DNA of 20,225 nucleotides from Gammaproteobacteria bacterium (GCA_051008895.1 JBPCXI010000225.1:1-20225), one strand, 5' to 3'. Shown: positions 1-19,896, numbered from the stretch's first letter. Notes: generated from the letters alone by a model not told the origin. Numbers and translations: made by a program.

Positions 1-1002
1 CAAATTCTTGCGCAAGCGCTGGCCGACGGTGGCGCGGCGATCGACGCCGGCGACGCGCCGGTCGCGGTGCGAAACTTCGAGCTGGCGCTCGCGGTCGATG
101 CGGTAAACGCGGAAGCGCGCGCGGGGCTCGAGCGCGCGGGCCGGCTCGACGAGGTGCTGGAACTCATGCGTGTGGCAACGGACACGGAGTCGGCCGGCGA
201 ACTGGCCGCCGCCGCGGCACTGTATGAGCAGGCGTTGGCCATCGATCAGGCATGGACGCCGGCGCGCGAGGGTTTGTCGCGAACGCGCGCGGGCGTCGCG
301 CGCCTGGGCTATGAAACGCGGATGGCGGCAGGATTCGCCGCTCTGGCGGGCGAGGAATACGATCGTGCCCGTCAGGAGTTTGCCGCCGCGCTGCGCATTC
401 GGCCCGGCAACGCCGATGCGCAGGCCGCGATCCGCCAGGTCGATGAGGAACTGCGAATGGCGGACGTCATTCGCCTGCAGGCGCGCGCGCGGATCGCGGA
501 GGCGGGAGAGGATTGGGCAACTGCGGTTGCACGTTACGAGGAGATACTGGCCAAGGATTCGGCGGTGACCTCGGCTCGAAAGAACCTCGAACGCGCCAAG
601 GCGCGCCGGCAACTCGGCGAACTTCTGGATCTCGCGATCTCGAAGGCTGACGAATTCAATGACGACCGCATCGCGCGTGAGGCGCGCGCGGTGCTCGAGC
701 GCGGCGCGGCGGTCAACGATTCCGGCCCGGTACTTGAGGATCAGACCGAACGGTTGCGGGAATTGCTGCGTGTCGCGGCGATACCGGTGCCGGTAGTTTT
801 CCAGTCTGACAATCAGACCGAGGTAGTAATATACAAAGTCGGTAGCCTCGGCATGTTTCAGTCCCGCACGCTCGACCTGAAGCCGGGCCGTTACGTTGCG
901 GTCGGCAGTCGCGAAGGCTATCGCGACGTGCGGCGGAGTTTTCAGGTGATGCCGCAGGGAACCGATGCACCGATCGTAATGAGCTGCGAGGAGCCGATTT
1001 GA
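1..1002 (+). CDS. TPR-like (tetratricopeptide-like) repeat protein, 5' partial. The reading frame is open back to position 1.
   Basis: The ORF at 67..1002 is in frame with no stop back to nt 1. The protein has repeated Ala/Leu-rich helical hairpins typical of TPR-like repeats (AxxAL..YEQAL..D..). Its stop overlaps the TTG start of the next gene (gaTTTGAg), so the two are translationally coupled. Confidence 0.55.
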   Translation, partial: QILAQALADGGAAIDAGDAPVAVRNFELALAVDAVNAEARAGLERAGRLDEVLELMRVATDTESAGELAAAAALYEQALAIDQAWTPAREGLSRTRAGVARLGYETRMAAGFAALAGEEYDRARQEFAAALRIRPGNADAQAAIRQVDEELRMADVIRLQARARIAEAGEDWATAVARYEEILAKDSAVTSARKNLERAKARRQLGELLDLAISKADEFNDDRIAREARAVLERGAAVNDSGPVLEDQTERLRELLRVAAIPVPVVFQSDNQTEVVIYKVGSLGMFQSRTLDLKPGRYVAVGSREGYRDVRRSFQVMPQGTDAPIVMSCEEPI

Positions 1003-3425
1003 GTCGCAACATCATCGTCGTCGATTCGAATGGCGAGCGTCCCGTACCGGCCGAAAAACTCCCGCTGAGCATTGGCAGTCATGTAACCGCCGACGTCAGG
1101 GTTCCCGGCCCGGTTACCGACGGCAATCGCGCGCTTATCGATCTGCTGGACGACCGCCCGTTCCTGCAAACAGCAGGAAAGGAGGGCGTGGAGGTCAACG
1201 GCGAGGCTTTGACGCGGAATCGCTGGCTCGAGGCCGGTGACGTAATAACGATTGCCGGCGTTAGCATCAGCTGCGAGTTGACTCCGGACAATGCACGCCT
1301 TGTCGTCGATTCGACGGCGCTGGAATACCCGACGTTGCCGCCGGAGATCGTGACCGGCGCGATCGAGCAGCCCGAGCCGATTGCACCGGTCCGGCCGACG
1401 TCGCCGCCGCAGCTGCGCGAGCCGCAAAGCGGCGGCAGCCAGCGCCTCAGATACATCGGGATGGGTGCGCTTGGCCTGCTGCTCGCGGTTGCGGCCTATC
1501 TGTTTACCGCTCAGGCAGTGCTGATCGAAGTCGATCCGCCCGGCGCGGAAATACGCGTTGTCGGCGGCCTGCTGTCGCCGAAGGTCGGCGGCCGTTATCT
1601 CCTGCATCGGGATACGTACCGCATCCTCATGACGGCCGACGGTTATCACCCGCTGCGCGAAGAAATAGAAATCGACGATTCGCCGAACCAGTCATTCGAA
1701 TTCTCGTTGCGCAAGTTGCCCGGCAGGCTGGCGATATCGACGGTGCCCGTCGTGCCCGCGCGATTGTCTATCGACGGTGAGGAAGTTGGGGAACTGCCCG
1801 GCGGCGAATTCATCGCGGAGCCCGGTGAGCACGAATTGACCATTGCCGCGGAGCGCTTCCTGCCGCTGGCCACTACGGTCGAGGTCGAGGGCCGCGACGT
1901 TTTGCAGCCGATCGAGCTGCAGCTCGAGCCCGGCTGGGCAGACGTGACCGTCAAGACGACGCCCGGCGACGCGGAGATATTCGTCGACGACGAGTCCGTC
2001 GGCCGGACGCCGGCGACCGTTGAAATAATGGCCGGCAACCGGACGCTCGTCATTCGCAAGGACGGCTATAAATCCGTGACGCGCGAACTCGACGTCGAGC
2101 CCGGCGTCGAGCAGGCTCTGACCGATGTGGAGCTGGCCGAGGCGGACGGGCTGCTGACGGTGATCAGCTCGCCGGTCGGCGCGGCGGTCAGCGTCGACGG
2201 CCGGTACCGGGGAACGACGCCGGTCGAAGTTGAACTCGCCCCGGGCCGTCGTTACAAAGTCATCGCATCCAAAGCGGGATTCGGGACCATCAGCCGCAAC
2301 GTAACGATGGAGTCGCGTAGCGGCCGGACGATTCGCATCGCTCTCGAGGCGCGGATCGGCATCCTGCGCGTGAGCGCCGAACCACCAGACGCTGAGCTGA
2401 TCGTCGACGGTGAATCTCGCGGCGTCGCCAACCAGGAGTTGTCGTTGCCGGCGCGACCGCACCGGATCGAGATTCGCAAAGCGGGTTACGAAACGTATAG
2501 CACCGAAATCAGCCCGCAGCCGGGGTTGCCGGAGAGTATCGAGGTGCGCTTGTTGACGCCGAAGGAAGCCGTGCTGGCCGCGACACCGAGCACGCTGCAA
2601 ACAGGCGACGGCACCAGCATGGTTCTGGTGCGTCCGGGCGGAGAGTTCGAAATGGGCGCGCCGCGCCGGGAGCAGGGTCGCAGGCCCAACGAAGCGACGC
2701 ATCGTGTGAGTCTGACGCGGCCGTTCTATATCGCGAAGACTGAGGTGACCAACTCGCAGTTTCAGGCATTCAAGCCGAAGCATACGTCCGGCGCGGAGAA
2801 GTACCGTCAGCTCGCGACCGGCAATCATCCGGCCGTGATGCTGAGTTGGGAAGAGGCCACCGGCTACTGCAACTGGCTGAGTTCCAAGGATGGCTTGCCT
2901 CCCGCCTATGTATTCGAGAACGGTGCGATCACCCTCGCCACGCCGCCGACCATCGGTTACCGGCTGCCGACTGAGGCGGAATGGGCGTGGGCCGCGCGGT
3001 TCAGCGGCGGCGGCGGGCAGCGCAAGTATCCGTGGGGTGACAAGATGCCACCCACCGAAGACGCCGGGAATTTCGCCGACAAGTCGGCACGATCCGTACT
3101 GCCGAACGTGCTGGTCAACTACAGCGACAGATTCCCGATAACGGCGCCGGTCGGCAGCTTCCGGCCTAGCCCGATTGGCCTGTACGACCTCGGCGGCAAC
3201 GTGGCCGAGTGGGTCAACGATCGCTATTCGGTGTACACGCAGTCGAAAGGCGTCGAAGTCGATCCGCTCGGACCCGACAAAGGGCAGTATCATGTTATCC
3301 GCGGCTCCGGATGGAGGCACTCGAGCATTAGTGAACTGCGTTACGCTTATCGTGATTTTGGCAATCGCGGCCGCCTCGACGTCGGCTTCAGGATCGCGCG
3401 CTATGCAGAAGCGGCCGCGGAGTAG
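999..3425 (+). CDS. Membrane protein with an N-terminal FHA-like domain, one TM helix, about 5-6 PEGA domains and a C-terminal FGE-sulfatase (SUMF1/formylglycine-generating-enzyme-like) domain.
   Basis: TTG start with a GAGGAG Shine-Dalgarno 5-6 nt upstream. N-terminus: SIGSHVTADVRV...NRALIDL...VEVNGEAL fits an FHA pattern. Hydrophobic stretch YIGMGALGLLLAVAAYLF is a TM helix. Repeated PEGA-type modules follow, e.g. VKTTPGDAEIFVDDESVGRTPATVEI...RKDGYKS. The C-terminal 260 aa carry FGE-sulfatase family motifs (YRLPTEAEWAWAAR, GNVAEWVND, IRGSGWRH, GFRIAR). Confidence 0.8.
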   Translation: MSRNIIVVDSNGERPVPAEKLPLSIGSHVTADVRVPGPVTDGNRALIDLLDDRPFLQTAGKEGVEVNGEALTRNRWLEAGDVITIAGVSISCELTPDNARLVVDSTALEYPTLPPEIVTGAIEQPEPIAPVRPTSPPQLREPQSGGSQRLRYIGMGALGLLLAVAAYLFTAQAVLIEVDPPGAEIRVVGGLLSPKVGGRYLLHRDTYRILMTADGYHPLREEIEIDDSPNQSFEFSLRKLPGRLAISTVPVVPARLSIDGEEVGELPGGEFIAEPGEHELTIAAERFLPLATTVEVEGRDVLQPIELQLEPGWADVTVKTTPGDAEIFVDDESVGRTPATVEIMAGNRTLVIRKDGYKSVTRELDVEPGVEQALTDVELAEADGLLTVISSPVGAAVSVDGRYRGTTPVEVELAPGRRYKVIASKAGFGTISRNVTMESRSGRTIRIALEARIGILRVSAEPPDAELIVDGESRGVANQELSLPARPHRIEIRKAGYETYSTEISPQPGLPESIEVRLLTPKEAVLAATPSTLQTGDGTSMVLVRPGGEFEMGAPRREQGRRPNEATHRVSLTRPFYIAKTEVTNSQFQAFKPKHTSGAEKYRQLATGNHPAVMLSWEEATGYCNWLSSKDGLPPAYVFENGAITLATPPTIGYRLPTEAEWAWAARFSGGGGQRKYPWGDKMPPTEDAGNFADKSARSVLPNVLVNYSDRFPITAPVGSFRPSPIGLYDLGGNVAEWVNDRYSVYTQSKGVEVDPLGPDKGQYHVIRGSGWRHSSISELRYAYRDFGNRGRLDVGFRIARYAEAAAE

Positions 3426-5939: not shown

Positions 5940-7037
5940 ATGGCGCGAAAGAGATTTAACGTATTCAACCTGTCTTTCCTCGACGTGATGGCGTGTGGCC
6001 TCGGCGCGATTGTGCTGTTCTACATGATCATCAACGCGCAGGTGTCGCGGCGTGCCGATCAGGCCAATGAAACGTTGCTGGCCGAGTCGACGATGCTTGA
6101 AGAAGAGGTGCTGGACGGGCGCAAGGATCTGATACGCGTGCGCACCACACTCGAGGCCAAGGAAGAGGAGCGGCTCGCAAGGGATACCGAGGCGGATCGT
6201 TTACGCGAGGAGCTCGAGCGACTGCTGGCCGAGCTGGCCGCGTCCGAGAAAAGCACGGTCGCCCAGACCGAGAGTATCGAACAACTGGAGGCTGACATCG
6301 AGCGCCTCGAAGACGCCAAGCGGCGCCTGTCGGCCGAGGCCGCGGACCGCGCGCCGGAATCCGGCCGACGGGTCCGTACGTTTGTCGGCGACGGCAACCG
6401 TCAGTACCTGACGGGCATGAGGATGGGCGGCAGCCGCGTACTGTTCCTCGTCGACGCATCGACGAGCATGCTCGGCCGTTCCTACGTAAACGTCGTGCGC
6501 TTCCGTAATATGCAGCCGTCGCGCAAACGCCTTGCGCCGAAATGGCAGCAGGTCGTAAACAGCGTCGACTGGCTCACCACTCAGCTTTCGCCGGGCATCA
6601 AATTTCAGCTCTACGTCTTCAACGAGCAAGCCAATAGTGTGGTCGACGGTAGCGACGGCAAGTGGATTGACGTGAAAGACGGGAGCGAGCTCAGTGAAGC
6701 AGTTGATGCACTGCGACTCGTCACGCCGGAGAAGGGTACTAGCCTGATCAATGCGTTCTCTCGCATCAGCGAACTCGACCCGCTGCCCGACAACATCTAT
6801 TTGTTGACCGACGGGCTGCCGACGCAGGGCAAGGTGCCGCCGAATGAGGTCGTGCGGGTCAAGGAGAGTCGTCGCATCGACTATTTCGAGAAGGCCGTGC
6901 GGCAATTGCCGCGGAAGGTGCCGGTCAATATTTTGTTGTATCCAATGGTTGGCGATCCCGCCGCGGCCGGGTTGTTCTGGCAGCTGGCGATTGCGAGTAA
7001 TGGTTCGCTGCTGACGCCGTCGCGTGACTGGCCGTAG
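5940..7037 (+). CDS. ExbD/TolR/MotB-like single-pass membrane protein with a long coiled coil and a C-terminal von Willebrand factor A (VWA, MIDAS) domain.
   Basis: The start is ATG 5940, which is preferred over the longer 5871 ORF. The N-terminus MARKRFNVFNLSFLDVMACGLGAIVLFYMI matches the ExbD/TolR TM helix with its conserved Asp (compare ExbD PFIDVMLVLL). The Glu/Leu/Arg-rich segment after the TM helix is a heptad-like coiled coil. The VWA domain has a DASTS MIDAS motif (LFLVDASTSM) and a downstream TDG motif (IYLLTDGLPT). Confidence 0.7.
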   Translation: MARKRFNVFNLSFLDVMACGLGAIVLFYMIINAQVSRRADQANETLLAESTMLEEEVLDGRKDLIRVRTTLEAKEEERLARDTEADRLREELERLLAELAASEKSTVAQTESIEQLEADIERLEDAKRRLSAEAADRAPESGRRVRTFVGDGNRQYLTGMRMGGSRVLFLVDASTSMLGRSYVNVVRFRNMQPSRKRLAPKWQQVVNSVDWLTTQLSPGIKFQLYVFNEQANSVVDGSDGKWIDVKDGSELSEAVDALRLVTPEKGTSLINAFSRISELDPLPDNIYLLTDGLPTQGKVPPNEVVRVKESRRIDYFEKAVRQLPRKVPVNILLYPMVGDPAAAGLFWQLAIASNGSLLTPSRDWP

Positions 7038-7061: not shown

Positions 7062-8057
7062 ATGAAGAAGAAAAATCGCGAAACAGAGACCTTCAGCCTG
7101 TCGTTTCTCGACGCGGTGACCTGCGCATTCGGGGCCGTCATTCTGCTGCTGGTGTTGACGAAAATCTATGAGCCGCAGACGATCGAGCGCAGCAAGCAGG
7201 AGCTCGCCGGGCTGATCGCCGCGTTGCAGAAGGAGTTGTTCGATCTGCGCGGCGAGACGGCCGTGCTCAATCGCGAGATGGTTACCGTCGACGATCAGCT
7301 GGCGAAGTCGCGCCAGGCGGTCGCGACGCTGCGCGGCGACGTGTCCGATGTTCGCGGCCAGTTCGAGGCGTCCCAGGACAGCGCCGACGTCGATAGCGAG
7401 CAGCGCGGCGAACTGGTTGCTGCGCGGCAAATGTTGACCGAGGAAATGAAACGCCTGCTCGCGAATTATCAACCCGCTGACAACGAAACGACCGTTGGCG
7501 GCATTCCGGTCGACAGTGAGTACATCATTTTCGTCATCGATACGTCCGGCAGCATGTTCCAGGGCCCTTGGCGGTTGGTACTCAAGAAAATCGAGGAGAC
7601 GCTGTCGGTCTACCCGGAGGTCAAGGGCATTCAGGTGCTGAACGACGAAGGACGGTATATGTTCTCGTCGTACGCCGGCAAATGGATCCCCGACTCGCCG
7701 ACCGCGCGTCGGAATATCATCAGCCGCCTGGCCAACTGGAATCCGTACAGCGATTCGAGTCCGGTCGAGGGGATATCCGAGGCGATAAACACGTTCTACG
7801 AGCCGGGCAAACCGATCAGTATTTTCGTATTCGGGGATGACTTCCCGCGCGGGCAGGTCGAGGCGGTTGCCCGCTTCATCGACAGAGTCAACAAAACAAA
7901 CGCATCAGGCGATCGGCTGGTCCGCATTCACGGGGTTGGATTTCCGACACAGCTGGCGGGCGGGCGCACGCGCAATGCGCAGCAGTTTGCGAACCTGATG
8001 AGGACGCTGTGCGAGCGCAACGGCGGATCGTTCGTCGCACTGACGTATTTGAACTAG
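7062..8057 (+). CDS. Paralogous ExbD/TolR-like TM helix, coiled coil and VWA-domain protein.
   Basis: The N-terminus FSLSFLDAVTCAFGAVILLLVL has the same ExbD-type TM Asp motif. A coiled coil follows, then a VWA domain with a DxSxS MIDAS motif (IIFVIDTSGSM). The architecture is the same as the upstream gene. Confidence 0.7.
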   Translation: MKKKNRETETFSLSFLDAVTCAFGAVILLLVLTKIYEPQTIERSKQELAGLIAALQKELFDLRGETAVLNREMVTVDDQLAKSRQAVATLRGDVSDVRGQFEASQDSADVDSEQRGELVAARQMLTEEMKRLLANYQPADNETTVGGIPVDSEYIIFVIDTSGSMFQGPWRLVLKKIEETLSVYPEVKGIQVLNDEGRYMFSSYAGKWIPDSPTARRNIISRLANWNPYSDSSPVEGISEAINTFYEPGKPISIFVFGDDFPRGQVEAVARFIDRVNKTNASGDRLVRIHGVGFPTQLAGGRTRNAQQFANLMRTLCERNGGSFVALTYLN

Positions 8058-8470: not shown

Positions 8471-10273
8471 CTAGAACATAGCTGACGGACCGACTTCGCC
8501 GTCGTCGTCGTCGTCCTCACGACGATTCTTGATGAAATCGCCGGTGATCATCTTGTCGTATGCCATGCCGGGCCCGACCATTGGAAAGACCATGGCGTCG
8601 GGATCGATGATCACCTCGAGAAACGCAGGTCCGTCGAACTCGATGAATTCCTTGACGACCTTTTCCACGTCGTTCTTTTGCTCCAGCCGCACCGCGAAAT
8701 CAAAACCGTCAGCCTGCGCAGCCTTGATGAAGTCTTTGCGATGCAGCGACTTGTCGGTCGCCGAAAAACGGCCTTTGTAATACAGCTTCTGCCACTGTCT
8801 GACCATCCCGTCGCCGTAGTTGTTGAGCACGACGACCTTGACGGGCAGGTCGTAGGTGGTGACCGTCTCGAGTTCGCCGAGATTCATCCGGATGCTCGCA
8901 TCGCCGTCGATATCGATGACCAGCCGGTCCGGACGCGCAAACTGCGCGCCAATCGCCGCTGGCAGGCCGAATCCCATCGTACCCATGCTGCCCGATGTCA
9001 GCCACAGTCGCGGTTCGCGAAAATCGAACCCCTGGGCTGCCCACATCTGGTGCTGGCCGACGCCGGTCGTGATGATTGCGTCGCCCTGCGTATGCTTGTT
9101 CAGTTCCTCAATGACATAGTCGGGCTGGATAAGCGCGCTGTCACGGTCGTAGTTTTGCGCGTACGTCGATTTCAGCGCCGCGATTTCCTCGTGCCAGATC
9201 GGCAGCCGAGTCTTGATATCGTGCCGGTCCCCATACGCGATCAGCGCCTGCAGATCGCGATTCAGGATGCCGACGTGATACCAGTCGACATTCTTGACCT
9301 TGCCGATCTCCGACGGGTCGACGTCGAAATGCGCGAGTCGCTTCGCGCTCGGCGCAAACTTCTCGGGCACTCCCGCGACGCGATCGTCGAAACGCGCGCC
9401 GACAGCGATCAGGAAATCGCAGTCGTCGACCGCGTAGTTCGCAAAAGCAGCGCCGTGCATGCCGAGCATGCGTAACGACAGGTCGCTGGTCGTATCCTGC
9501 GCGCCAATGCCCATCAGCGTCGTCGTAATCGGTATCCCGAAGCGATCCGCAAACGTTCTCAGCGAAGCCGAGGAATCGCTGTTGACGACGCCGCCCCCCG
9601 CATAAATCAGCGGGCGCTCCGAACGTGCCAGCATGTCGAAGAATACCTTTGCCGTGCCGGCGGTCAGAACGTTTTCTTCGACCGCGCGCATGCGCTGGCG
9701 ATAGCCGACGATCGGTAGCAAGCCGGTGCCCTCGAATTCGCCGACCCAGTTCTGCACGTCTTTCGGCACGTCTACGACGACCGGTCCGGGTCTGCCGGTG
9801 CGGGCAATTTCGAACGCGGTACGCACGGTGGCCTCGAGTTTGTGCGGGTCGGTCACGAGGAACACATGTTTCGCGACCGCCGAGCCCATAACCGCTGAAA
9901 TCGGGGCCTCCTGGAATGCGTCCGTGCCGATCGCTGCCGTCGGGACCTGGCCGCAGATCACGACGATCGGTATCGAGTCGGCCATGCAGTCGCGGACCGG
10001 CGTAACGGTATTGGTCGCGCCGGGACCCGACGTCACCATGACGACGCCGACCTCGCCGCTCGCGCGAGCGTATCCGGACGCCATGAAGCCGGCCCCCTGC
10101 TCGTTGGCCGGCACGATCAACGGCATTGGCACGCCGCCGTTGTCGTCGCGGTTGTCGTCGTTGTAACGAAAGACTGCGTCGTAGGTCGGGAGGATCGCGC
10201 CGCCACTGTAGCCGAAAATCGCGTCGACGCCTTCGTCGGCGAGTACCTGTACGATCATTTCCGCGCCGGTCAT
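8471..10273 (-). CDS. ilvI: Acetolactate synthase (acetohydroxy-acid synthase) large catalytic subunit. It is ThDP-dependent and carries an unusual C-terminal poly-Asp tail.
   Basis: ALS-specific motifs are present: FGYSGGAILPTYDAV, GPGATN, RMLGMHG, GVGQHQMWAAQ and SGSMGTMGFGLPAAIGA. The start is chosen at MTGAEMIVQ (10273). The longer ORF allows ATG 10330 or 10501. The C-terminus ...NRREDDDDDGEVGPSAMF is atypical for this family. Confidence 0.85.
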   Translation of the reverse strand: MTGAEMIVQVLADEGVDAIFGYSGGAILPTYDAVFRYNDDNRDDNGGVPMPLIVPANEQGAGFMASGYARASGEVGVVMVTSGPGATNTVTPVRDCMADSIPIVVICGQVPTAAIGTDAFQEAPISAVMGSAVAKHVFLVTDPHKLEATVRTAFEIARTGRPGPVVVDVPKDVQNWVGEFEGTGLLPIVGYRQRMRAVEENVLTAGTAKVFFDMLARSERPLIYAGGGVVNSDSSASLRTFADRFGIPITTTLMGIGAQDTTSDLSLRMLGMHGAAFANYAVDDCDFLIAVGARFDDRVAGVPEKFAPSAKRLAHFDVDPSEIGKVKNVDWYHVGILNRDLQALIAYGDRHDIKTRLPIWHEEIAALKSTYAQNYDRDSALIQPDYVIEELNKHTQGDAIITTGVGQHQMWAAQGFDFREPRLWLTSGSMGTMGFGLPAAIGAQFARPDRLVIDIDGDASIRMNLGELETVTTYDLPVKVVVLNNYGDGMVRQWQKLYYKGRFSATDKSLHRKDFIKAAQADGFDFAVRLEQKNDVEKVVKEFIEFDGPAFLEVIIDPDAMVFPMVGPGMAYDKMITGDFIKNRREDDDDDGEVGPSAMF

Positions 10274-10492
10274 GCGCTTGCCGGCACGCGGGTGTGCGGT
10301 CGTTTCGATTGTCGGTGACGGACTTGCCATAACGTTGGAAGGCGCTTTGTGCGGGTCTATGAGGATCGAGTTGTTGTGTTTTCGCGAGTTTCGAACAAAT
10401 GAGGGTCCATTGCAATAGCAAACATTCTGAGCGAGTATTGCCAATCTTCTAAATCTTAAGGCTTTTTTCGGCACCTCCGGCGAAAACCAGCG

Positions 10493-10993
10493 ATGCGACA
10501 CGTGATTTCCATACTGCTGCAGAACGAAGCCGGCGCGCTCGCGAGGGTCGCGTCGTTGTTCTCGACGCGCGGCTACAACATCGAATCGCTCAGCGTCGCG
10601 CCGACCGAGGACCCGCAGGTCTCGCGATTGACGCTGGTTTCGATCGGGTCCGATCAGGTCATTTCACAGATTACGCAGCAGCTGTTCAAACTCGTCGATG
10701 TCGTAAATATTGCCGATATGACACTTGGCGATCATATAGAGCGCGAGCTGCTGCTGCTCAAGCTGCGCGTAGACACGGAGCACGGCGATAAGGTCCGGGA
10801 CATGGCGCGCGAGCTTAAGGCCCGTGTGCTCGACGACGCTTTGCGGAACTACACCGTGGAAGTCACCGGCAGCAGCGGCCAGCTCGATGAATTCATCGAT
10901 CGCGTCGGCAACTGCGGCGATATCCTGACGGTCGTGCGCTCGGGGCCGCTGTCGCTCGCGCGGGGCCAGCAGGTGTTGAGCGCGACAATCTGA
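10493..10993 (+). CDS. ilvH: Acetolactate synthase small (regulatory, ACT-domain) subunit.
   Basis: 166 aa. The N-terminus MRHVISILLQNEAGALARVASLFSTRGYNIESLSVAPTEDPQVSRLT closely matches the IlvH/IlvN ACT-domain signature. Confidence 0.85.
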   Translation: MRHVISILLQNEAGALARVASLFSTRGYNIESLSVAPTEDPQVSRLTLVSIGSDQVISQITQQLFKLVDVVNIADMTLGDHIERELLLLKLRVDTEHGDKVRDMARELKARVLDDALRNYTVEVTGSSGQLDEFIDRVGNCGDILTVVRSGPLSLARGQQVLSATI

Positions 10994-15533: not shown

Positions 15534-15610
15534 GCCGGCCTGGCTTTAATGGCAAGAAGCGGCTGCCTGGTAAGCAGCAGAAAGAGGTTCGATTCCTCTG
15601 ACCGGCACCA
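15534..15610 (+). tRNA. tRNA-Thr (anticodon GGT).
   Basis: Cloverleaf read by eye. Acceptor GCCGGCC/GACCGGC has one C-A mismatch. D-stem GCTT/AAGC. Anticodon stem GCTGC/GCAGC with loop CTGGTAA. T-arm AGAGG-TTCGATT-CCTCT. CCA is encoded. Confidence 0.75.
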
Positions 15611-15615
15611 CACAT

Positions 15616-15690
15616 GCACTGGTAGCTCAGACGGCAGAGCGCCTGGTTGAAGCCCAGGAAACGGAGTCTCGAAACCTCCCCGGTGCGCCA
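15616..15690 (+). tRNA. tRNA-Phe (anticodon GAA), atypical.
   Basis: Acceptor GCACTGG/CCGGTGC includes a G-U pair. D-arm GCTC-AGACGGCA-GAGC. Anticodon stem CCTGG/CCAGG with loop TTGAAGC, so position 37 is G. T-arm GGAGT-CTCGAAA-CCTCC has U53-C61 and C54, which is non-canonical. CCA is encoded. Confidence 0.55.
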
Positions 15691-15696
15691 GATTAT

Positions 15697-15771
15697 TCCG
15701 GTTTAGCTCAACGGTAGAGCGGCCGCCTGTTAAGCGGCCAGGTGCAGGTTCGAATCCCGCAGCCGGAGCCA
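15697..15771 (+). tRNA. tRNA-Asn (anticodon GTT).
   Basis: Acceptor TCCGGTT/AGCCGGA. D-arm GCTC-AACGGTA-GAGC. Anticodon stem GCCGC/GCGGC with loop CTGTTAA. T-arm GCAGG-TTCGAAT-CCCGC has one A-C mismatch. CCA is encoded. Confidence 0.75.
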
Positions 15772-15777
15772 ATCATC

Positions 15778-15845
15778 GGGGGTGTTTCTGAGAAAGCGAA
15801 CGCCTTGCAAGCGCGTGCAGGCCGGTTTGATTCCGGCCGCCTCCA
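15778..15845 (+). pseudogene. Degenerate tRNA-like element. The acceptor and T-arm are intact, but the D and anticodon arms are aberrant.
   Basis: Acceptor GGGGGTG/CGCCTCC pairs, with two G-U. T-arm GCCGG-TTTGATT-CCGGC is perfect. The intervening 34 nt cannot be folded into canonical D and anticodon arms. The best case is CGC-CTTGCAA-GCG, a UGC (Ala)-like loop on a 3-bp stem. No CCA is encoded. Confidence 0.35.
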
Positions 15846-15948
15846 TTCAATGACGAGCGGCTTTCAGGCTGCACGAAGTCGGCCTGAAAGACCTCCTCGG
15901 AATTAATGCCGGAAAACCACCGGTTTTCTCGGCGCTCAATTTCAATAG

Positions 15949-16024
15949 GCCTCGTTAGCTAAGCGACCAAAGCAGCGGACTGTCCATCCGAAGATCACGA
16001 GTTTGATTCTCGTACGGGGCGCCA
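15949..16024 (+). tRNA. tRNA-Asp (anticodon GTC), atypical.
   Basis: Acceptor GCCTCGT/ACGGGGC with discriminator G73, which is Asp-like. Anticodon loop CTGTCCA puts C at position 37. The D-stem is weak at 3 bp and the D-loop has no GG. T-arm ACGAG-TTTGATT-CTCGT. CCA is encoded. Confidence 0.55.
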
Positions 16025-16030
16025 AACATC

Positions 16031-16107
16031 GAACCGGTGCGCAAATGGTCAAAGCGGCCAGGCTCTCAACCTGGTGATTGTGGGTTCAACTCCCATCCGG
16101 TTTACCA
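16031..16107 (+). tRNA. tRNA-Glu (anticodon CTC).
   Basis: Acceptor GAACCGG/CCGGTTT with G1-U72. Anticodon stem CCAGG/CCTGG with loop CTCTCAA. T-arm GTGGG-TTCAACT-CCCAT. CCA is encoded. Confidence 0.65.
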
Positions 16108-16123
16108 ATTTTCAATAGTCACT

Positions 16124-16201
16124 CAGGGTGTAGCTCAGCCTGGCCAGAGCATGCGGTCCGGAACCGCGAGGCCACTGGTTCGAATCCAGTCGCCCTGACC
16201 A
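16124..16201 (+). tRNA. tRNA-Pro (anticodon CGG), atypical with C33.
   Basis: Acceptor CAGGGTG/CGCCCTG. D-arm GCTC-AGCCTGGCCA-GAGC. Anticodon stem TGCGG/CCGCG with loop TCCGGAA, so position 33 is C rather than the near-universal U. T-arm ACTGG-TTCGAAT-CCAGT. CCA is encoded. Confidence 0.55.
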
Positions 16202-16207
16202 ATCAAT

Positions 16208-16283
16208 GGTGAATGTCGCCTAATGACAGGGCCCCGGGCCGTGAACCCGGAAGATGCGAGTTCGAGTCTCGTCGTTCACCCCA
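16208..16283 (+). tRNA. tRNA-His (anticodon GTG) with G-1 and C73, and an atypical C33.
   Basis: An extra 5' G precedes acceptor GTGAATG/CGTTCAC, and the discriminator is C. Both are His identity elements. Anticodon stem CCGGG/CCCGG with loop CCGTGAA, so position 33 is C. T-arm GCGAG-TTCGAGT-CTCGT. CCA is encoded. Confidence 0.65.
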
Positions 16284-16305
16284 AACAATCAATCCAATCA
16301 ACCAT

Positions 16306-16380
16306 GGATCGTTAGCTCAAACCTAGAGCACCCGGTTCTTACCCGGGACGATGAGGGTTAAAGTCCTTCACGGTCTACCA
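16306..16380 (+). tRNA. tRNA-Lys (anticodon CTT).
   Basis: Acceptor GGATCGT/ACGGTCT with two G-U pairs. D-arm GCTC-AAACCTA-GAGC. Anticodon stem CCCGG/CCGGG with loop TTCTTAC. T-arm GAGGG-TTAAAGT-CCTTC. CCA is encoded. Confidence 0.65.
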
Positions 16381-16393
16381 AATCGAAACCAGC

Positions 16394-16467
16394 TGCCCGA
16401 TCGGTTAGTGGCAAACCGCCGCTCTTACAAAGCGGATCCGACGGTTCGATTCCGTCTCGGGCGACCA
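16394..16467 (+). tRNA. tRNA-Val (anticodon TAC).
   Basis: Acceptor TGCCCGA/TCGGGCG with U1-G72. D-arm GGTT-AGTGGCA-AACC. Anticodon stem CCGCT/AGCGG with loop CTTACAA. T-arm GACGG-TTCGATT-CCGTC. CCA is encoded. Confidence 0.7.
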
Positions 16468-16473
16468 GACAAT

Positions 16474-16550
16474 GCGGCTTTAGCTCAGATGAACAGAGCG
16501 CAACTTTGCGACGGTTGAGGACGAGGGTTTGAGTCCCTCAGGCCGCTCCA
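16474..16550 (+). tRNA. tRNA-Arg (anticodon GCG).
   Basis: Acceptor GCGGCTT/AGGCCGC. D-arm GCTC-AGATGAACA-GAGC. Anticodon stem CAACT/GGTTG with loop TTGCGAC. T-arm GAGGG-TTTGAGT-CCCTC. CCA is encoded. GCG is not the usual bacterial CGN decoder (ACG to ICG). Confidence 0.6.
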
Positions 16551-16554
16551 ATAT

Positions 16555-16628
16555 TGTCCTGTAGCTCAACGGCAGAGCGCCGGCCTGATAAGCCGGTGAC
16601 GTCAGTTCGACTCTGACCTGGACATCCA
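16555..16628 (+). tRNA. tRNA-Ile (anticodon GAT).
   Basis: Acceptor TGTCCTG/CTGGACA has one U-U mismatch. D-arm GCTC-AACGGCA-GAGC. Anticodon stem CCGGC/GCCGG with loop CTGATAA. T-arm GTCAG-TTCGACT-CTGAC. CCA is encoded. Confidence 0.65.
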
Positions 16629-16633
16629 ACCAC

Positions 16634-16711
16634 TGCCGTCTGAAGGGAATTGGCATACCTGCCTGGTTCAGACCCAGGCGTTTCCCGGTTCGAATCCGGG
16701 GACGGCGACCA
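16634..16711 (+). tRNA. tRNA with anticodon CAG (Leu) but class-I architecture (short 5-nt variable arm). The assignment is uncertain.
   Basis: Acceptor TGCCGTC/GACGGCG with U1-G72. The D-stem is 3 bp and the D-loop is long and contains GG. Anticodon stem CCTGG/CCAGG with loop TTCAGAC. The variable region is only CGTTT. T-arm CCCGG-TTCGAAT-CCGGG. CCA is encoded. Bacterial Leu tRNAs normally have a long variable arm. Confidence 0.45.
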
Positions 16712-16862
16712 CTCATTCAGGTAATCCGCGTCGGCATCACGCGTACAGAGCTTGGGCAAGCGACGACGTTCAAAGGCGACGGGCTCCGGGCCCGGCCGGC
16801 GCACTCACGCTACCCATCGCACGGTGTGTACCGAGCGAATCGTGGCACTCAGGCAGCCAACC

Positions 16863-16934
16863 GCTGTTTTAGCTCAGAAGGGTAGAGCGACGAGCATTGT
16901 CTCGTTGTCGAAGGTTCGATTCCTTCATCCAGCA
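16863..16934 (+). pseudogene. Degenerate tRNA-like element (tRNA pseudogene).
   Basis: D-arm GCTC-AGAAGGGTA-GAGC and T-arm GAAGG-TTCGATT-CCTTC are intact. The acceptor GCTGTTT/ATCCAGC has two mismatches. The anticodon region ACGAG-CATTGT-CTCGT has only a 6-nt loop. No CCA is encoded. Confidence 0.35.
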
Positions 16935-16956
16935 CTTCACTGTTAATGAAGCGACT

Positions 16957-16990
16957 TGGTAAGGGTGTAAACCTCGTGGTTCGAATCCAC
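16957..16990 (+). other. tRNA 3'-half remnant. A T-arm is present but no matching 5' acceptor strand.
   Basis: CGTGG-TTCGAAT-CCACC T-arm. No complementary acceptor strand or D-arm can be found upstream. It is followed by about 300 bp of GC-rich spacer. Confidence 0.3.
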
Positions 16991-17329
16991 CCCCGGGCGA
17001 GGGTATCGCCACCTACGCGACGGCCTCCGGCGGCGCCGGATGCATCACCAGGCTCAGGCCGAACGGTGCATCGGGTTAGCCGCAGCACCCGGGGCGCTGA
17101 CGGGACGGACCTGCGGGTCCGCCCGGTCCGGTTTCGCCTGACGAGACCGCGCTGCGGGGCTTTCGAGCACCGTCGCGTCGTCGGTCCGGCCAAGCCGAAT
17201 CCGGTAGCCCGGAACCGTCTGTTTCCGCTACGGATGTGGAGGTCGTCGCACCAATTTTCATGCGTGATGCCGAAATGTTTTTTGGCGCTGCTCACAGGGA
17301 GTGGCGCGGTTTATAGAGGAGATAGAAAA

Positions 17330-18472
17330 ATGTTTTTCATTCGTAAGTTCATCGTGCGCAAGCACGAGCGTGGCCTGCTGTTCAAGCAGGGAGACTTCGT
17401 CCGCTTCCTGGAGCCGGGCGTACTCCGCCTGTTCGATCCGCTGCGTCGAGTGGACGTCGAGCTGCACAACATCGCGCAGCCGGAGTTCGAGCACGGTCTG
17501 GCTGACTTCTTCGTGAAGCAGTTCCCGGCAGACGTCGAGCGCCTGTTCGAGAAGGTCGAGACCCGTGACCACGAGGTCGCGGTGATCTTCAAGAACGGTC
17601 ACTTCGCTGACATCGTCGGTCCGGACCAGCGCAAGCTGTTCTGGAAGGGCATCGTGGACGTGACCGCGCAGGTGGTCGACATCGGCGAGACCTTCGAGGT
17701 CGAGCCGCGCGTCGCGAAGGCTCTGGTCACCGACCTGAAGGGCAAGCGCATCGCGTTGGCGACTAACGCGATCGTCGCCCGCGAGGTGCCGGACGGCCAC
17801 GTTGGCCTGCTGTTCGTGGACGGTGAGCTGATTCGCGAGCTGGCGCCGGGCCTGCACGTGTTCTGGAAGTTCAACCGCGGCATCGCCGTGGAGCTGGTCG
17901 ACCAGCGCGTGCGCGCGCTGGAGGTCGGTGGTCAGGAGATCCTGACCAAGGACAAGGTCGCGCTCCGCGTGAACCTGACCGCGAACTTCCAGTTCACCGA
18001 TGCGCTGAAGGCGACCCAGGTCGCCAAGGACCCGCTGGATTTCCTGTACAAGGAGCTGCAGTTCGGTCTGCGCGCGTCGGTCGGTACCCGCACTCTGGAT
18101 GCGCTACTGGAGGACAAGGGTGCTGTCGACCACGAGGTCTTCGAGCAGGTTCACGACAAGTTCGCGGACATTGGCATCGAGGTGCGCGGCATCGGTGTCA
18201 AGGACATCATCCTCCCGGGTGACATGAAGGAGATCCTGGGCAAGGTGGTGGAGGCGGAGAAGGTGGCTCAGGCCAACGTGATCCGTCGTCGCGAGGAGAC
18301 CAATGCGACCCGTTCGCTGCTGAACACTGCGAAGGTCATGGAGGACAACCCGACCGCGCTGCGTCTGAAGGAGCTGGAGACCCTGGAGAAGGTCACCGAA
18401 AAGGTGGGCAACATCTCGGTCATCGGCGGCCTGGACGGTGTTCGGGACCAGCTGGTTCGCATCAAGCGCTAG
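17330..18472 (+). CDS. SPFH/band-7 (stomatin/prohibitin/flotillin/HflK-C) domain protein.
   Basis: ATG 17330 with a strong Shine-Dalgarno (GAGGAG, 8 nt upstream). The upstream extension of the long ORF (from 16946) is GC-rich non-coding-like sequence. The central and C-terminal regions (VKDIILPGDMKEILGKVVEAEKVAQANVIRRREE..) are SPFH-like with a coiled-coil tail. Confidence 0.75.
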   Translation: MFFIRKFIVRKHERGLLFKQGDFVRFLEPGVLRLFDPLRRVDVELHNIAQPEFEHGLADFFVKQFPADVERLFEKVETRDHEVAVIFKNGHFADIVGPDQRKLFWKGIVDVTAQVVDIGETFEVEPRVAKALVTDLKGKRIALATNAIVAREVPDGHVGLLFVDGELIRELAPGLHVFWKFNRGIAVELVDQRVRALEVGGQEILTKDKVALRVNLTANFQFTDALKATQVAKDPLDFLYKELQFGLRASVGTRTLDALLEDKGAVDHEVFEQVHDKFADIGIEVRGIGVKDIILPGDMKEILGKVVEAEKVAQANVIRRREETNATRSLLNTAKVMEDNPTALRLKELETLEKVTEKVGNISVIGGLDGVRDQLVRIKR

Positions 18473-18516: not shown

Positions 18517-19896
18517 TTAGTCCCGGTTCAGCGCGCTGATCAGCGGCTGCAGATGTTCTGCGTAATTTTTCCAGCGGCCGATCGACTTGGTGTGCATCGG
18601 CTTTCGAATTTGCGCGCGACTGATATTGAGTACCTCGCGCTTCGTCTCGTAAAAGGATAAACAGGCCGGATCGAAATTCAGGCCGCAATGGTCCAACAGG
18701 TCGCGAATGCGTTCCTCCGGCTCAGTCACAAGTTCTTCATAGTGGCTGACGAAAATCCTGCCCGGCATCAGTTCTTGCCAGTAGCTCATCAGGTCTTGCA
18801 TGTAGCGGGTAATCTCGCCGATCTGTGCGAGGTCGTAGCAGTAGGCCTGGTTGTGTGGAAGGTCTTTCTGGAAATATGAAAGTCCCTGGTCTCGAGGGTC
18901 GCGTTTGCAGTAAATGATCTTTGCGTTGGGCAGCATCACCGCGATCAGTGGTGCATAGAAAAAATTGTAGTTCATCTTGTCGGTGAAAAAGGCCGTGTCT
19001 GCCGAGAGCGACTTCAGGCCTTCGATATAGCGAATCGCGGCATCTTTGAACAACTGCGGATCCACCTTATTGAACCCCTGCGGAAAAGGGCTGCCTGTCT
19101 TCAAGCTGATTTCGTTAATCAGCTCGTTCAGCTGCATCGTTTCACCCGCGCCATAGACCTGTGGGTGGCTACACAGGATTTGCTCCCGCAGCGTCGAACC
19201 TGTTCGCATCATTCCTGTAATGAAAATCGGGCTTTCATCCGGGATTCCGATGTCTTGATAACGAGCGAGAAAATCTTCGTCGAATACCTTCCTGAAATAT
19301 TGAAACCATTCCGCGCGGCCGGCATTAGTCCAGTTCGCTTGGACTGCCCCTATGCGGTTCGCCTCTCTGAAGTATTCGAACGCAGTGTCGTATTGTTGTA
19401 GATCATCAAAAACTTTCCCCAACGCAAAGCCCAGTTTCATTTTTGTCTGGCTGTTCGCGGAAGATTGAGCGTAAATTTCCTGCATCGCGCGAACATCATC
19501 CGTTATCTCGTCATACTGAGTGATAATCGCGATATCGTCGTACAGGTAAGCGTTGCGCGAATCGATGGCAATCGCCGCCCTGAACGCCGCGCATGCATCA
19601 TCGAACTCGTTGTTGTCTCGCAAAAGTTTGCCAAGTTGAATATGCAGTTGGGCCGAATCAGGGTCGGCACGAATGGCGTTTTCGAGCAACCGGCGGAGCT
19701 CGTCGAACGCCAGCGGCTGATCGTCAATTTCGCCCAGTGCGATCAAGGCGGAGACATTGTCGCTATCGACCGCGAGCACCTGCGTATAGATCGCCTTGGC
19801 CTCTTCCAGTTTGCCGGACTGGTGCAGTTGCCGTGCGATTTTCAGCTTGATATCCAGCACAAGATTCCGCCTTCTGCGGTGAAATGATCTATTCAC
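18517..19896 (-). CDS. TPR-repeat protein fused to a C-terminal sulfotransferase domain.
   Basis: The N-terminal half has TPR-like repeats (AKAIYTQVLAVDSDNVSALIALG...). The C-terminal half has the sulfotransferase 5'-PSB-like motif PIFITGMMRTGSTL and the 3'-PB-like motif YCKRDPRDQGLSY. The start is uncertain. The longest ORF begins with GTG at 19896. An internal GTG near 19860 has a better AAGG Shine-Dalgarno. The region is AT-rich compared with its surroundings. Confidence 0.7.
   Translation of the reverse strand: MNRSFHRRRRNLVLDIKLKIARQLHQSGKLEEAKAIYTQVLAVDSDNVSALIALGEIDDQPLAFDELRRLLENAIRADPDSAQLHIQLGKLLRDNNEFDDACAAFRAAIAIDSRNAYLYDDIAIITQYDEITDDVRAMQEIYAQSSANSQTKMKLGFALGKVFDDLQQYDTAFEYFREANRIGAVQANWTNAGRAEWFQYFRKVFDEDFLARYQDIGIPDESPIFITGMMRTGSTLREQILCSHPQVYGAGETMQLNELINEISLKTGSPFPQGFNKVDPQLFKDAAIRYIEGLKSLSADTAFFTDKMNYNFFYAPLIAVMLPNAKIIYCKRDPRDQGLSYFQKDLPHNQAYCYDLAQIGEITRYMQDLMSYWQELMPGRIFVSHYEELVTEPEERIRDLLDHCGLNFDPACLSFYETKREVLNISRAQIRKPMHTKSIGRWKNYAEHLQPLISALNRD

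Follow-up and report, generated by a model that had tools for sequence, protein, structure and literature searches.

The stretch of DNA analysed here (the window, 20,225 nucleotides (nt) in full; Gammaproteobacteria bacterium, GCA_051008895.1, JBPCXI010000225.1:1-20225) carries towards its 5′ end a closely packed group of genes on one strand. Within it, an open reading frame (ORF) of 808 amino acids (aa) encodes an FHA-fold domain, a linker, a transmembrane (TM) helix, five PEGA domains and a head resembling formylglycine-generating enzyme (FGE). It is preceded by a receptor Ser/Thr kinase gene, of which the 3′ part is present, and followed by genes for a small secreted acidic protein, a TolQ-like channel subunit, an Hsp70-like protein with its own FHA domain and two membrane-tethered von Willebrand factor A (vWA) proteins (Table 1). 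Our comparative analysis suggests, with a probability that we put at about one half, that this PEGA-FGE protein is the periplasm-spanning arm of a TolQ-like/vWA motor system and that its FHA fold serves as a phospho-independent adaptor.

Table 1. Genes, domains and motifs of the PEGA-FGE locus (TPR, tetratricopeptide repeat; MIDAS, metal ion-dependent adhesion site; AF2, AlphaFold2; pThr, phosphothreonine)
Feature	Coordinates	Strand	Basis
Receptor Ser/Thr kinase gene, 3′ part: periplasmic TPR and C-terminal beta-rich tail	1..1002	+	Open frame, TPR, alignment
PEGA-FGE protein gene: FHA-like / linker / TM / PEGA x5 / FGE-like	999..3425	+	Pfam, homologues, AF2
Cytoplasmic FHA-fold domain without pThr-binding residues (aa 1-105)	999..1313	+	Pfam, profile against PDB, AF2, Foldseek
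T112-L-P-P motif in disordered linker	1332..1343	+	Conservation, pLDDT
Juxtamembrane motif I128-A-P-V-R-P (general form I-x-P-x-x-F/V)	1380..1397	+	Conservation
Single transmembrane helix (aa 149-171)	1443..1511	+	Hydropathy scan, AF2
Five tandem PEGA beta-sandwich domains, predicted periplasmic stalk (aa 172-517)	1512..2549	+	Pfam, AF2
FGE-sulfatase-fold (C-type-lectin-like) head without catalytic Cys pair (aa 532-802)	2592..3404	+	Pfam, alignment, Foldseek
Small secreted acidic protein, 93 aa	3429..3710	+	Signal peptide, homologue comparison
MotA/TolQ/ExbB-family proton channel subunit, 265 aa	3728..4525	+	Pfam
Cytoplasmic Hsp70/actin-like (weak) and C-terminal FHA protein, S-R-R-H core, 462 aa	4547..5935	+	Pfam, profile against PDB
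Transpore-helix (LSFLD, invariant Asp)/coiled coil/vWA protein 1, MIDAS D-A-S-T-S	5940..7037	+	Pfam, conservation
Transpore-helix (LSFLD)/coiled coil/vWA protein 2, MIDAS D-T-S-G-S	7062..8057	+	Pfam, conservation

The reading frame of the PEGA-FGE protein opens with a TTG codon in a 4-nt overlap with the upstream stop, at the same position as the 'MSR' N-terminus of its homologues. The full-length AF2 model, based on a 52-sequence alignment, has a predicted local distance difference test score (pLDDT) of 82.8 and presents a beta domain (residues 1-105), a disordered segment (108-148), a helix (149-170), five beta-sandwiches within 172-517, a short helix and a mixed alpha/beta domain (532-802). 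The FHA/TM/PEGA/FGE layout given in a preliminary description of this DNA is thus borne out by Pfam, by comparison of the family profile with the PDB, by AF2 with Foldseek and by a hydropathy scan. The same description had allowed for five or six PEGA repeats; the repeats are present and number five, as AF2 shows exactly five sandwiches. It considered the placing of PEGA repeats between the membrane and the FGE domain unusual; the combination of PEGA and FGE domains is not, since PEGA occurs in all 120 homologues listed and FGE-sulfatase accompanies it in 118, the remaining two being shorter entries. More distant PEGA+FGE proteins were also found in other contexts, and the pairing is common both inside and outside this family. 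The individual domains are all of known kinds, and we have seen no annotation of the full FHA-like/TM/PEGA5/FGE-like combination. Public databases label the homologues 'PEGA domain-containing protein' or 'FGE required for sulfatase activity' (FGE at JGI), an annotation that overlooks the FHA domain and wrongly implies enzyme activity, and that is corrected here.

A Pfam scan of the whole protein reported no FHA domain, and precomputed Pfam annotation places PF00498 in none of the 120 homologues listed. When scanned alone, the N-terminus matches PF00498 with 23.4 bits (E = 8e-5), narrowly over the cutoff of 20.7. A family profile of 43 sequences returned 25 matches in the PDB, of which 21 are FHA domains, including all of the top 15; Ki-67 (1.7e-6) and Mycobacterium tuberculosis FhaA (4.5e-5) lead the list, followed by KIF13B, EmbR, Rv1747 and GarA. 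The structural comparison agrees: with an AF2 model of residues 1-118 (pLDDT 86.5), 49 of the top 50 Foldseek matches in the PDB are FHA domains, the exception being a type VIIb secretion core unit, with a probability of 1.0 for nearly all and target-normalised TM-scores mostly of 0.55-0.71. The FHA fold is genuine, as the preliminary description had supposed.

What this domain has lost is the phosphate pocket, which in characterised FHA domains such as those of Rad53, Ki-67 and the mycobacterial proteins is formed by Arg, Ser, His and Asn. The corresponding positions were located through hidden Markov model alignments to Ki-67 and FhaA. The Arg of the 'GR' motif is present in 0/94 family members, which have Ser, Thr or a gap there, and the His of 'SxxH' is likewise found in 0/94; the Ser of 'SxxH' is kept in 11 of the 94 and is not conserved, nor is the Asn of the β6-β7 loop across the same sequences. 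The window's protein has S27, D41, R44 and E63 at the four positions. Because the pThr-pocket residues are lost family-wide, the domain is a degenerate FHA, and its proposed role as a cytoplasmic docking site for phosphothreonine is unlikely. The protein offers a clear case of an FHA fold that lacks the phosphate pocket and yet is still associated with a kinase.

The linker between the FHA fold and the membrane is disordered (pLDDT <50 in residues 108-148) and includes two conserved motifs. The T-x-P-P motif lies just past the FHA-like domain, with T112, P114 and P115 each conserved in at least 90% of the family, and is a candidate for either a phospho-acceptor or a docking motif. The I-x-P-x-x-(F/V) motif is common to the FHA-containing proteins and to 690-aa variants without that domain; it is most likely a universal cytoplasmic contact. 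Hydropathy scanning detected one TM segment only and no signal peptide; the helix is flanked by Arg residues on its N-terminal side and acidic residues on its C-terminal side. The flanking charges and the absence of a signal peptide therefore point to an N-in topology, in which the N-terminus would be cytoplasmic.

On the other side of the membrane, the PEGA region gives a strong whole-protein match to PF08308 (E = 6e-46). Scanned singly, the five repeats score 17.0, 26.2, 51.9, 48.6 and 40.0 bits against a gathering score of 20.8, so that four exceed the cutoff and one, at 17.0, falls below it; in the AF2 model the sandwiches occupy residues 172-236, 242-308, 313-378, 384-448 and 453-517. The head matches the FGE-sulfatase family PF03781 at residues 539-801 (E = 5.5e-48). 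Catalytic FGEs carry a Cu(I)-binding Cys pair, C-x4-C, near the C-terminus, and the head is without it: in the alignment to the Streptomyces coelicolor enzyme, 'LcHDSyCNRYR' stands opposite 'wr.hss.iselr', with gaps or Ile at the two Cu-binding Cys, and Cys is absent from the family consensus 'RGSSWRHxSISELR'. This check of the catalytic residues agrees with the earlier suggestion of a non-catalytic FGE domain. The head would be a non-catalytic, C-type-lectin-like binding module. Its best NCBIfam match is GldK (TIGR03525, E = 2.7e-29), with 102.7 bits against a cutoff of 350; membership of GldK/PorK, PvdO, EgtB or SenA was rejected on scores far under the curated cutoffs. By Foldseek the nearest structures are TvpA, PvdO and true FGEs (E ~1e-12), PorK being farther at ~1e-8.

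The genes downstream encode the elements of a putative motor. The TolQ-like protein matches PF01618 (E = 1e-13) and TolQ itself (4.8e-6). The two vWA proteins are paralogous, and each has an N-terminal TM helix, a weak vWA match and an intact D-x-S-x-S MIDAS; the Asp of their (L/M/I)(S/A)FLD motif is invariant in both proteins across all of the 23 to 24 loci compared. Matches to the ExbD, TolR or MotB families were absent from the cluster. A TolQ-like gene accompanied by a heterologous pair of transpore-helix-vWA proteins has been predicted to form a new 5:2 motor (Mol Biol Evol 2025, PMC12204202), and the window shares the features by which those clusters were defined, namely a MotA/TolQ/ExbB gene of tolQ-like type without tolR or exbD, two heterologous single-TM LSFLD-vWA proteins and the conserved Asp. 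Beyond that description, the window adds a PEGA-FGE protein, a Ser/Thr kinase, FHA domains and an Hsp70-like protein. In PMC12204202, kinase and PEGA have 0 occurrences; FGE, FHA and an Hsp70-like protein are unmentioned, the sole word-match to 'FHA' being FhaC. As that paper is silent on it, the PEGA-FGE protein is an undescribed companion of that motor. Literature searches combining FGE, PEGA, FHA or kinase with TolQ, ExbB, MotA or vWA found no paper describing such an association, and nothing in the searchable literature reports the fixed link of this protein to the motor and the receptor kinase module.

Two further genes are interspersed in this module. The 93-aa protein carries a signal peptide, is very acidic in the middle and has the motif 'PLPADLPxxxPSD' conserved at its C-terminus; it could be a ligand of the MIDAS sites (DASTS, DTSGS) of the two vWA proteins. 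The Hsp70-like protein has a Pfam FHA match of E = 4.8e-10, and its family profile finds FHA domains in the PDB at 1e-6 and, as a weak match to an Hsp70/actin-like nucleotide-binding domain, Hsp70 SSB1 at ~1e-3. Two alternative assignments of the whole cluster were rejected. One was an anti-phage defence system: PADLOC gave no match for the PEGA-FGE protein and only sub-threshold ZorA/ZorB-type noise for its neighbours, the kinase matching generic kinase models. The other was a 'ternary' vWA-MoxR/iSTAND conflict system; such systems make use of FGS and PEGA domains but depend on MoxR or STAND NTPases (PMC7159879), both of which are absent here.

The Pfam scan of the 808-aa protein gave no Pkinase match, so that no Hanks kinase lies on the same polypeptide. 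The preliminary description had called for a search for a cognate Ser/Thr kinase in the genome, and one is found directly upstream, coupled by the 4-nt overlap. In the window its frame is open from base 1 and truncated by the edge, with weak TPR matches, and the product aligns to the C-terminus of kinase-TM-TPR proteins in two other loci, L001 and L096 (95% identical), where the same gene is complete or nearly so and bears a Hanks kinase domain with VALK, HRD and DFG motifs, as expected of a competent kinase. In L001 the kinase domain spans aa 1-270 and is followed by a TM helix (~318-344) and a periplasmic TPR region. Variants occur elsewhere: in L002 (7645..10004) the kinase is split from the TM-TPR protein as a separate soluble protein, and DFG is replaced by DFA in L002 and by DLA in L020, which are possible pseudokinases. 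Upstream of the kinase in L001 (5524..7555), in a part of the cluster outside the window, there are two conserved lipoprotein genes with lipoboxes, one combining a conserved C-terminal helix with a long low-complexity stretch of Gly, Ser and acidic residues, the other 411 aa in length; no Pfam or NCBIfam match over cutoff was obtained for either.

For the comparison of gene order, a scan of a genome collection gave 11 loci, and a metagenome scan was added to obtain enough context. The order that recurs in gammaproteobacterial metagenome-assembled genomes (MAGs) is two lipoproteins (where present), kinase/TPR, PEGA-FGE protein, small protein, TolQ-like, Hsp70-like+FHA, vWA and vWA. A partly covered Desulfobacteraceae MAG contig has the same downstream order, and an Acidobacteria-type MAG shows the arrangement minus the kinase and the Hsp70-like protein. 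The TolQ-like gene is directly downstream of the PEGA-FGE homologue in 29/30 loci, the exception being L028, and a TM-TPR gene, whether it includes a kinase domain or not, is always directly upstream and typically overlaps the homologue by 4 nt. The 690-aa variants without the FHA-like domain (L014, L015, L021, L026 and others) occur beside a TM-TPR protein without kinase and an Hsp70-like protein without the S-R-x-H core, while the lipoprotein, TM-TPR, PEGA-FGE protein, TolQ-like protein and vWA pair are all kept. Of the clusters at ~28% identity, L034 and L035 consist of only these components, and L037 has the same upstream order until its contig ends.

Presence and absence of the remaining parts co-vary. 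The FHA-like domain of the PEGA-FGE protein occurs in 11/11 kinase-containing clusters versus 4/10 kinase-less ones (L007, L016, L018 and L024; Fisher p = 0.004), and the S-R-x-H core of the downstream FHA domain in 9/9 versus 0/7 (p = 9e-5), both p values being uncorrected for phylogeny or shared ancestry. In the kinase-less clusters the Hsp70-like protein has lost exactly the beta-strands with S-R-x-H and S-R-F-G-T. Strict co-occurrence with the kinase is therefore a property of the FHA domain of the downstream protein and not of that of the PEGA-FGE protein. Because kinase-less and very distant clusters keep it, the PEGA-FGE ectodomain would belong to the core of the machine, and the kinase domain, the FHA-like domain and the Hsp70-like+FHA protein appear to constitute an accessory cytoplasmic module. 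The idea of a periplasmic sensor, advanced in the preliminary description, is accordingly not the most economical one, as the PEGA-FGE protein persists beside the TolQ-like and vWA genes without kinase or FHA in L014, L015, L034 and L035; a sensor is less well supported than a core structural or functional arm of the motor system.

Building on the domain layout, the missing pThr-binding and catalytic residues, the gene order and the co-variation, we infer the following physical contacts, phospho-site, geometry and biological output. The 808-aa protein would be a bitopic inner-membrane subunit of a conserved envelope machine whose core would comprise a TolQ/ExbB-like pentamer-type channel and a heterologous protein pair, each member of the pair having a predicted transpore helix with an Asp, similar to that of ExbD/TolR, then a coiled coil and, in the periplasm, a vWA head whose MIDAS is intact. 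The five PEGA sandwiches may form a stalk spanning most of the periplasm (~5 x 3.5 nm), and the non-catalytic FGE/C-type-lectin-like head on this stalk would engage a partner, or a ligand in the envelope, close to the outer membrane. In the cytoplasm, the juxtamembrane I-x-P motif would supply the universal contact, to which the window's lineage would have added the pocketless FHA fold as a phospho-independent adaptor to the accessory module. This module, formed by the upstream receptor kinase and the downstream Hsp70-like+FHA protein, would regulate the machine; the linker T-x-P-P is a plausible kinase substrate that the FHA domain of the downstream protein might read.

A more elaborate version, possible but doubtful in our judgement, treats the whole operon as encoding a phospho-regulated envelope machine not described before. 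The TolQ-like pentamer would turn or pull an axle, the heterodimer of Asp-helix/coiled-coil/vWA proteins, whose MIDAS heads would engage both the PEGA5 tower with its PorK-like head and the TPR of the kinase, while the kinase, the degenerate FHA adaptor and the Hsp70-like+FHA protein would gate the motor from the cytoplasm. If true, this would be the first Ser/Thr-kinase-controlled 5:2 motor, with a layout convergent with PorLM-PorKN of the type IX secretion system (T9SS).

Several points weigh against assigning the PEGA-FGE protein to the motor as its arm. Its tie to the motor, to the kinase and to the Hsp70-like+FHA protein is one of synteny, and shared ancestry may enter the uncorrected co-variation. 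In L028 (metagenome contig Ga0209804_1000039), which has a high-GC version of the cluster, the kinase, the FHA-like PEGA-FGE homologue, the Hsp70-like+FHA protein and both vWA genes are present with no TolQ-like gene nearby; an ORF at 15679..16509 that was considered as a relocated copy was rejected, since it has no similarity to the window's TolQ-like protein and its N-terminus reads as that of a lipoprotein. The T-x-P-P motif is also kept in kinase-less clusters and may not be a phospho-site. The ability of the downstream FHA domain to read pThr is likewise uncertain, because its canonical Arg is missing in the window's clade (V, T or S instead; Arg only in L002, L023 and L028) and its Asn is missing as well. 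For the FGE-like head, candidate ligands are the lipoproteins, the secreted acidic protein, the TPR tail of the kinase and the vWA heads with their MIDAS.

Other systems offer parallels for parts of this arrangement. The inner-ring proteins YscD/PrgH/EscD of type III secretion and EssC of type VII secretion also combine a cytoplasmic N-terminal FHA fold without pThr residues, one TM helix and repeated periplasmic domains, and their phospho-independent FHA domains serve as scaffold contacts; the EssC FHA is among the Foldseek matches of the N-terminal domain (rank 38). Unlike YscD/PrgH/EscD, the 808-aa protein has no Pfam Yop-YscD_cpl match, and its periplasmic part is PEGA/FGE instead of ring-building motifs. 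The mycobacterial proteins GarA/OdhI, FhaA and Rv1747, substrates or adaptors of Ser/Thr kinases that give the best sequence and fold matches after Ki-67, similarly have an FHA domain beside a disordered segment with a conserved Thr and are encoded with or near a Hanks kinase, but they keep the Arg/Ser/His/Asn pocket and bind pThr. In T9SS and gliding, PorK/GldK and PorLM/GldLM likewise comprise an FGE-fold periplasmic protein encoded with a proton-driven 5:2-type motor that has a periplasm-crossing dimeric axle, and PorK structures do match the FGE-like head. This resemblance is an analogy of layout, not membership: the GldK score is far below cutoff, Foldseek places the head nearer TvpA, PvdO and true FGEs than PorK, the 808-aa protein is an inner-membrane bitopic protein without a lipoprotein signal and not an outer-membrane lipoprotein, and its neighbours are TolQ-like and vWA genes instead of PorL/M/N (GldL/M/N).

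The same observations can be read in terms of signalling. The PEGA-FGE ectodomain and the TPR tail of the kinase might sense a ligand together as co-receptors, with the degenerate FHA holding or regulating the kinase domain and the Hsp70-like+FHA protein switching the motor on or off as output. The invariable position of the TM-TPR gene directly upstream, with or without a kinase domain, and the co-variation of kinase, FHA-like domain and downstream FHA core are consistent with this, but the reading leaves unexplained that the pair is kept without kinase, FHA or Hsp70-like protein in L034, L035, L014 and L015, where it must therefore act directly in the machine; we regard it as rather unlikely. 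A phospho-dependent adaptor, in which the FGE-like head would sense a periplasmic signal and the FHA domain dock a pThr partner such as the autophosphorylated upstream kinase, is an unlikely reading even though the FHA fold is genuine, the receptor kinase is translationally coupled upstream and all 11 kinase-containing clusters have the FHA-like domain. It conflicts with the family-wide loss of Arg and His and the lack of conservation of Ser and Asn, with the FHA-like domain staying in four kinase-less clusters and with the ectodomain being kept where there are no phospho-signalling parts at all. FGE-sulfatase ectodomains are known partners of bacterial Ser/Thr kinases (Proteo1, bioRxiv 10.1101/2025.01.12.632604), and the Proteo1 receptors resemble the 808-aa protein as single-pass membrane proteins with a non-catalytic FGE-fold ectodomain and a Hanks-type kinase link. 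Here, in contrast, the kinase is on a separate polypeptide with its own TM helix and periplasmic TPR, and the FGE-bearing protein has a degenerate FHA in place of a kinase and five PEGA domains between membrane and head.

A mechanical role different from that of a periplasm-spanning arm would be that of a cell-wall anchor, with the PEGA stalk and FGE-like head binding peptidoglycan or another envelope polymer as a fixed point for the TolQ-like motor, because the vWA axle proteins themselves have no OmpA/MotB-type peptidoglycan-binding domain. PEGA is among the peptidoglycan-associating domains listed in PMC7159879, both transpore-helix proteins end in vWA and not in OmpA-like domains, and the PEGA-FGE protein is a core member of the cluster. 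The FGE/C-type-lectin fold is, however, not a known peptidoglycan binder, and L002 has a separate OmpA-family gene just downstream, so that we consider an anchor quite improbable. Farther from probable still is an active FGE or a related oxidase acting on a periplasmic substrate. The strong FGE-sulfatase match, the FGE structures among the top matches and the JGI label of the homologues speak for it, but neither the protein nor the family consensus has the Cu(I)-binding Cys pair, whose absence refutes canonical FGE chemistry; the scores for PvdO, EgtB, SenA and GldK are far too low, and no sulfatase gene was found among the ORFs scanned in the 20-kb window.

Proton-driven 5:2 motors such as MotAB, ExbBD, TolQR, GldLM and ZorAB each drive a different envelope process. 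To our knowledge, the TolQ-like/vWA class, predicted only in 2025, has no known function or partners. The locus offers candidate partners kept across phyla, including the PEGA-FGE tower, the TM-TPR protein, the lipoproteins and the small acidic protein, and one lineage adds a complete putative regulatory module made up of a receptor kinase, an Hsp70-like protein and two FHA domains. Together, these candidate partners and this module make the system experimentally approachable.

Other features of the window lie downstream. An ORF for the large subunit of acetohydroxyacid synthase (8471..10501, minus strand) measures 676 aa from its GTG start versus 600 aa in homologous loci; its start as called is probably too far upstream and would run into the ilvN-like gene at 10493, which is divergent. 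At 15534..16935 on the plus strand, 11 tRNA genes (Thr, Asn, Asp, Glu, Pro, His, Lys, Val, Arg, Ile and Leu) form a dense array, joined by an aberrant tRNA-like call (16863..16935) whose anticodon has 2 nt. The guanine-plus-cytosine content of this stretch is ~0.57 versus ~0.63 elsewhere in the window. The array is flanked by an SPFH/Band-7 protein with a long N-terminal extension (16946..18472, plus strand) and a TPR and sulfotransferase fusion protein (18517..19896, minus strand).

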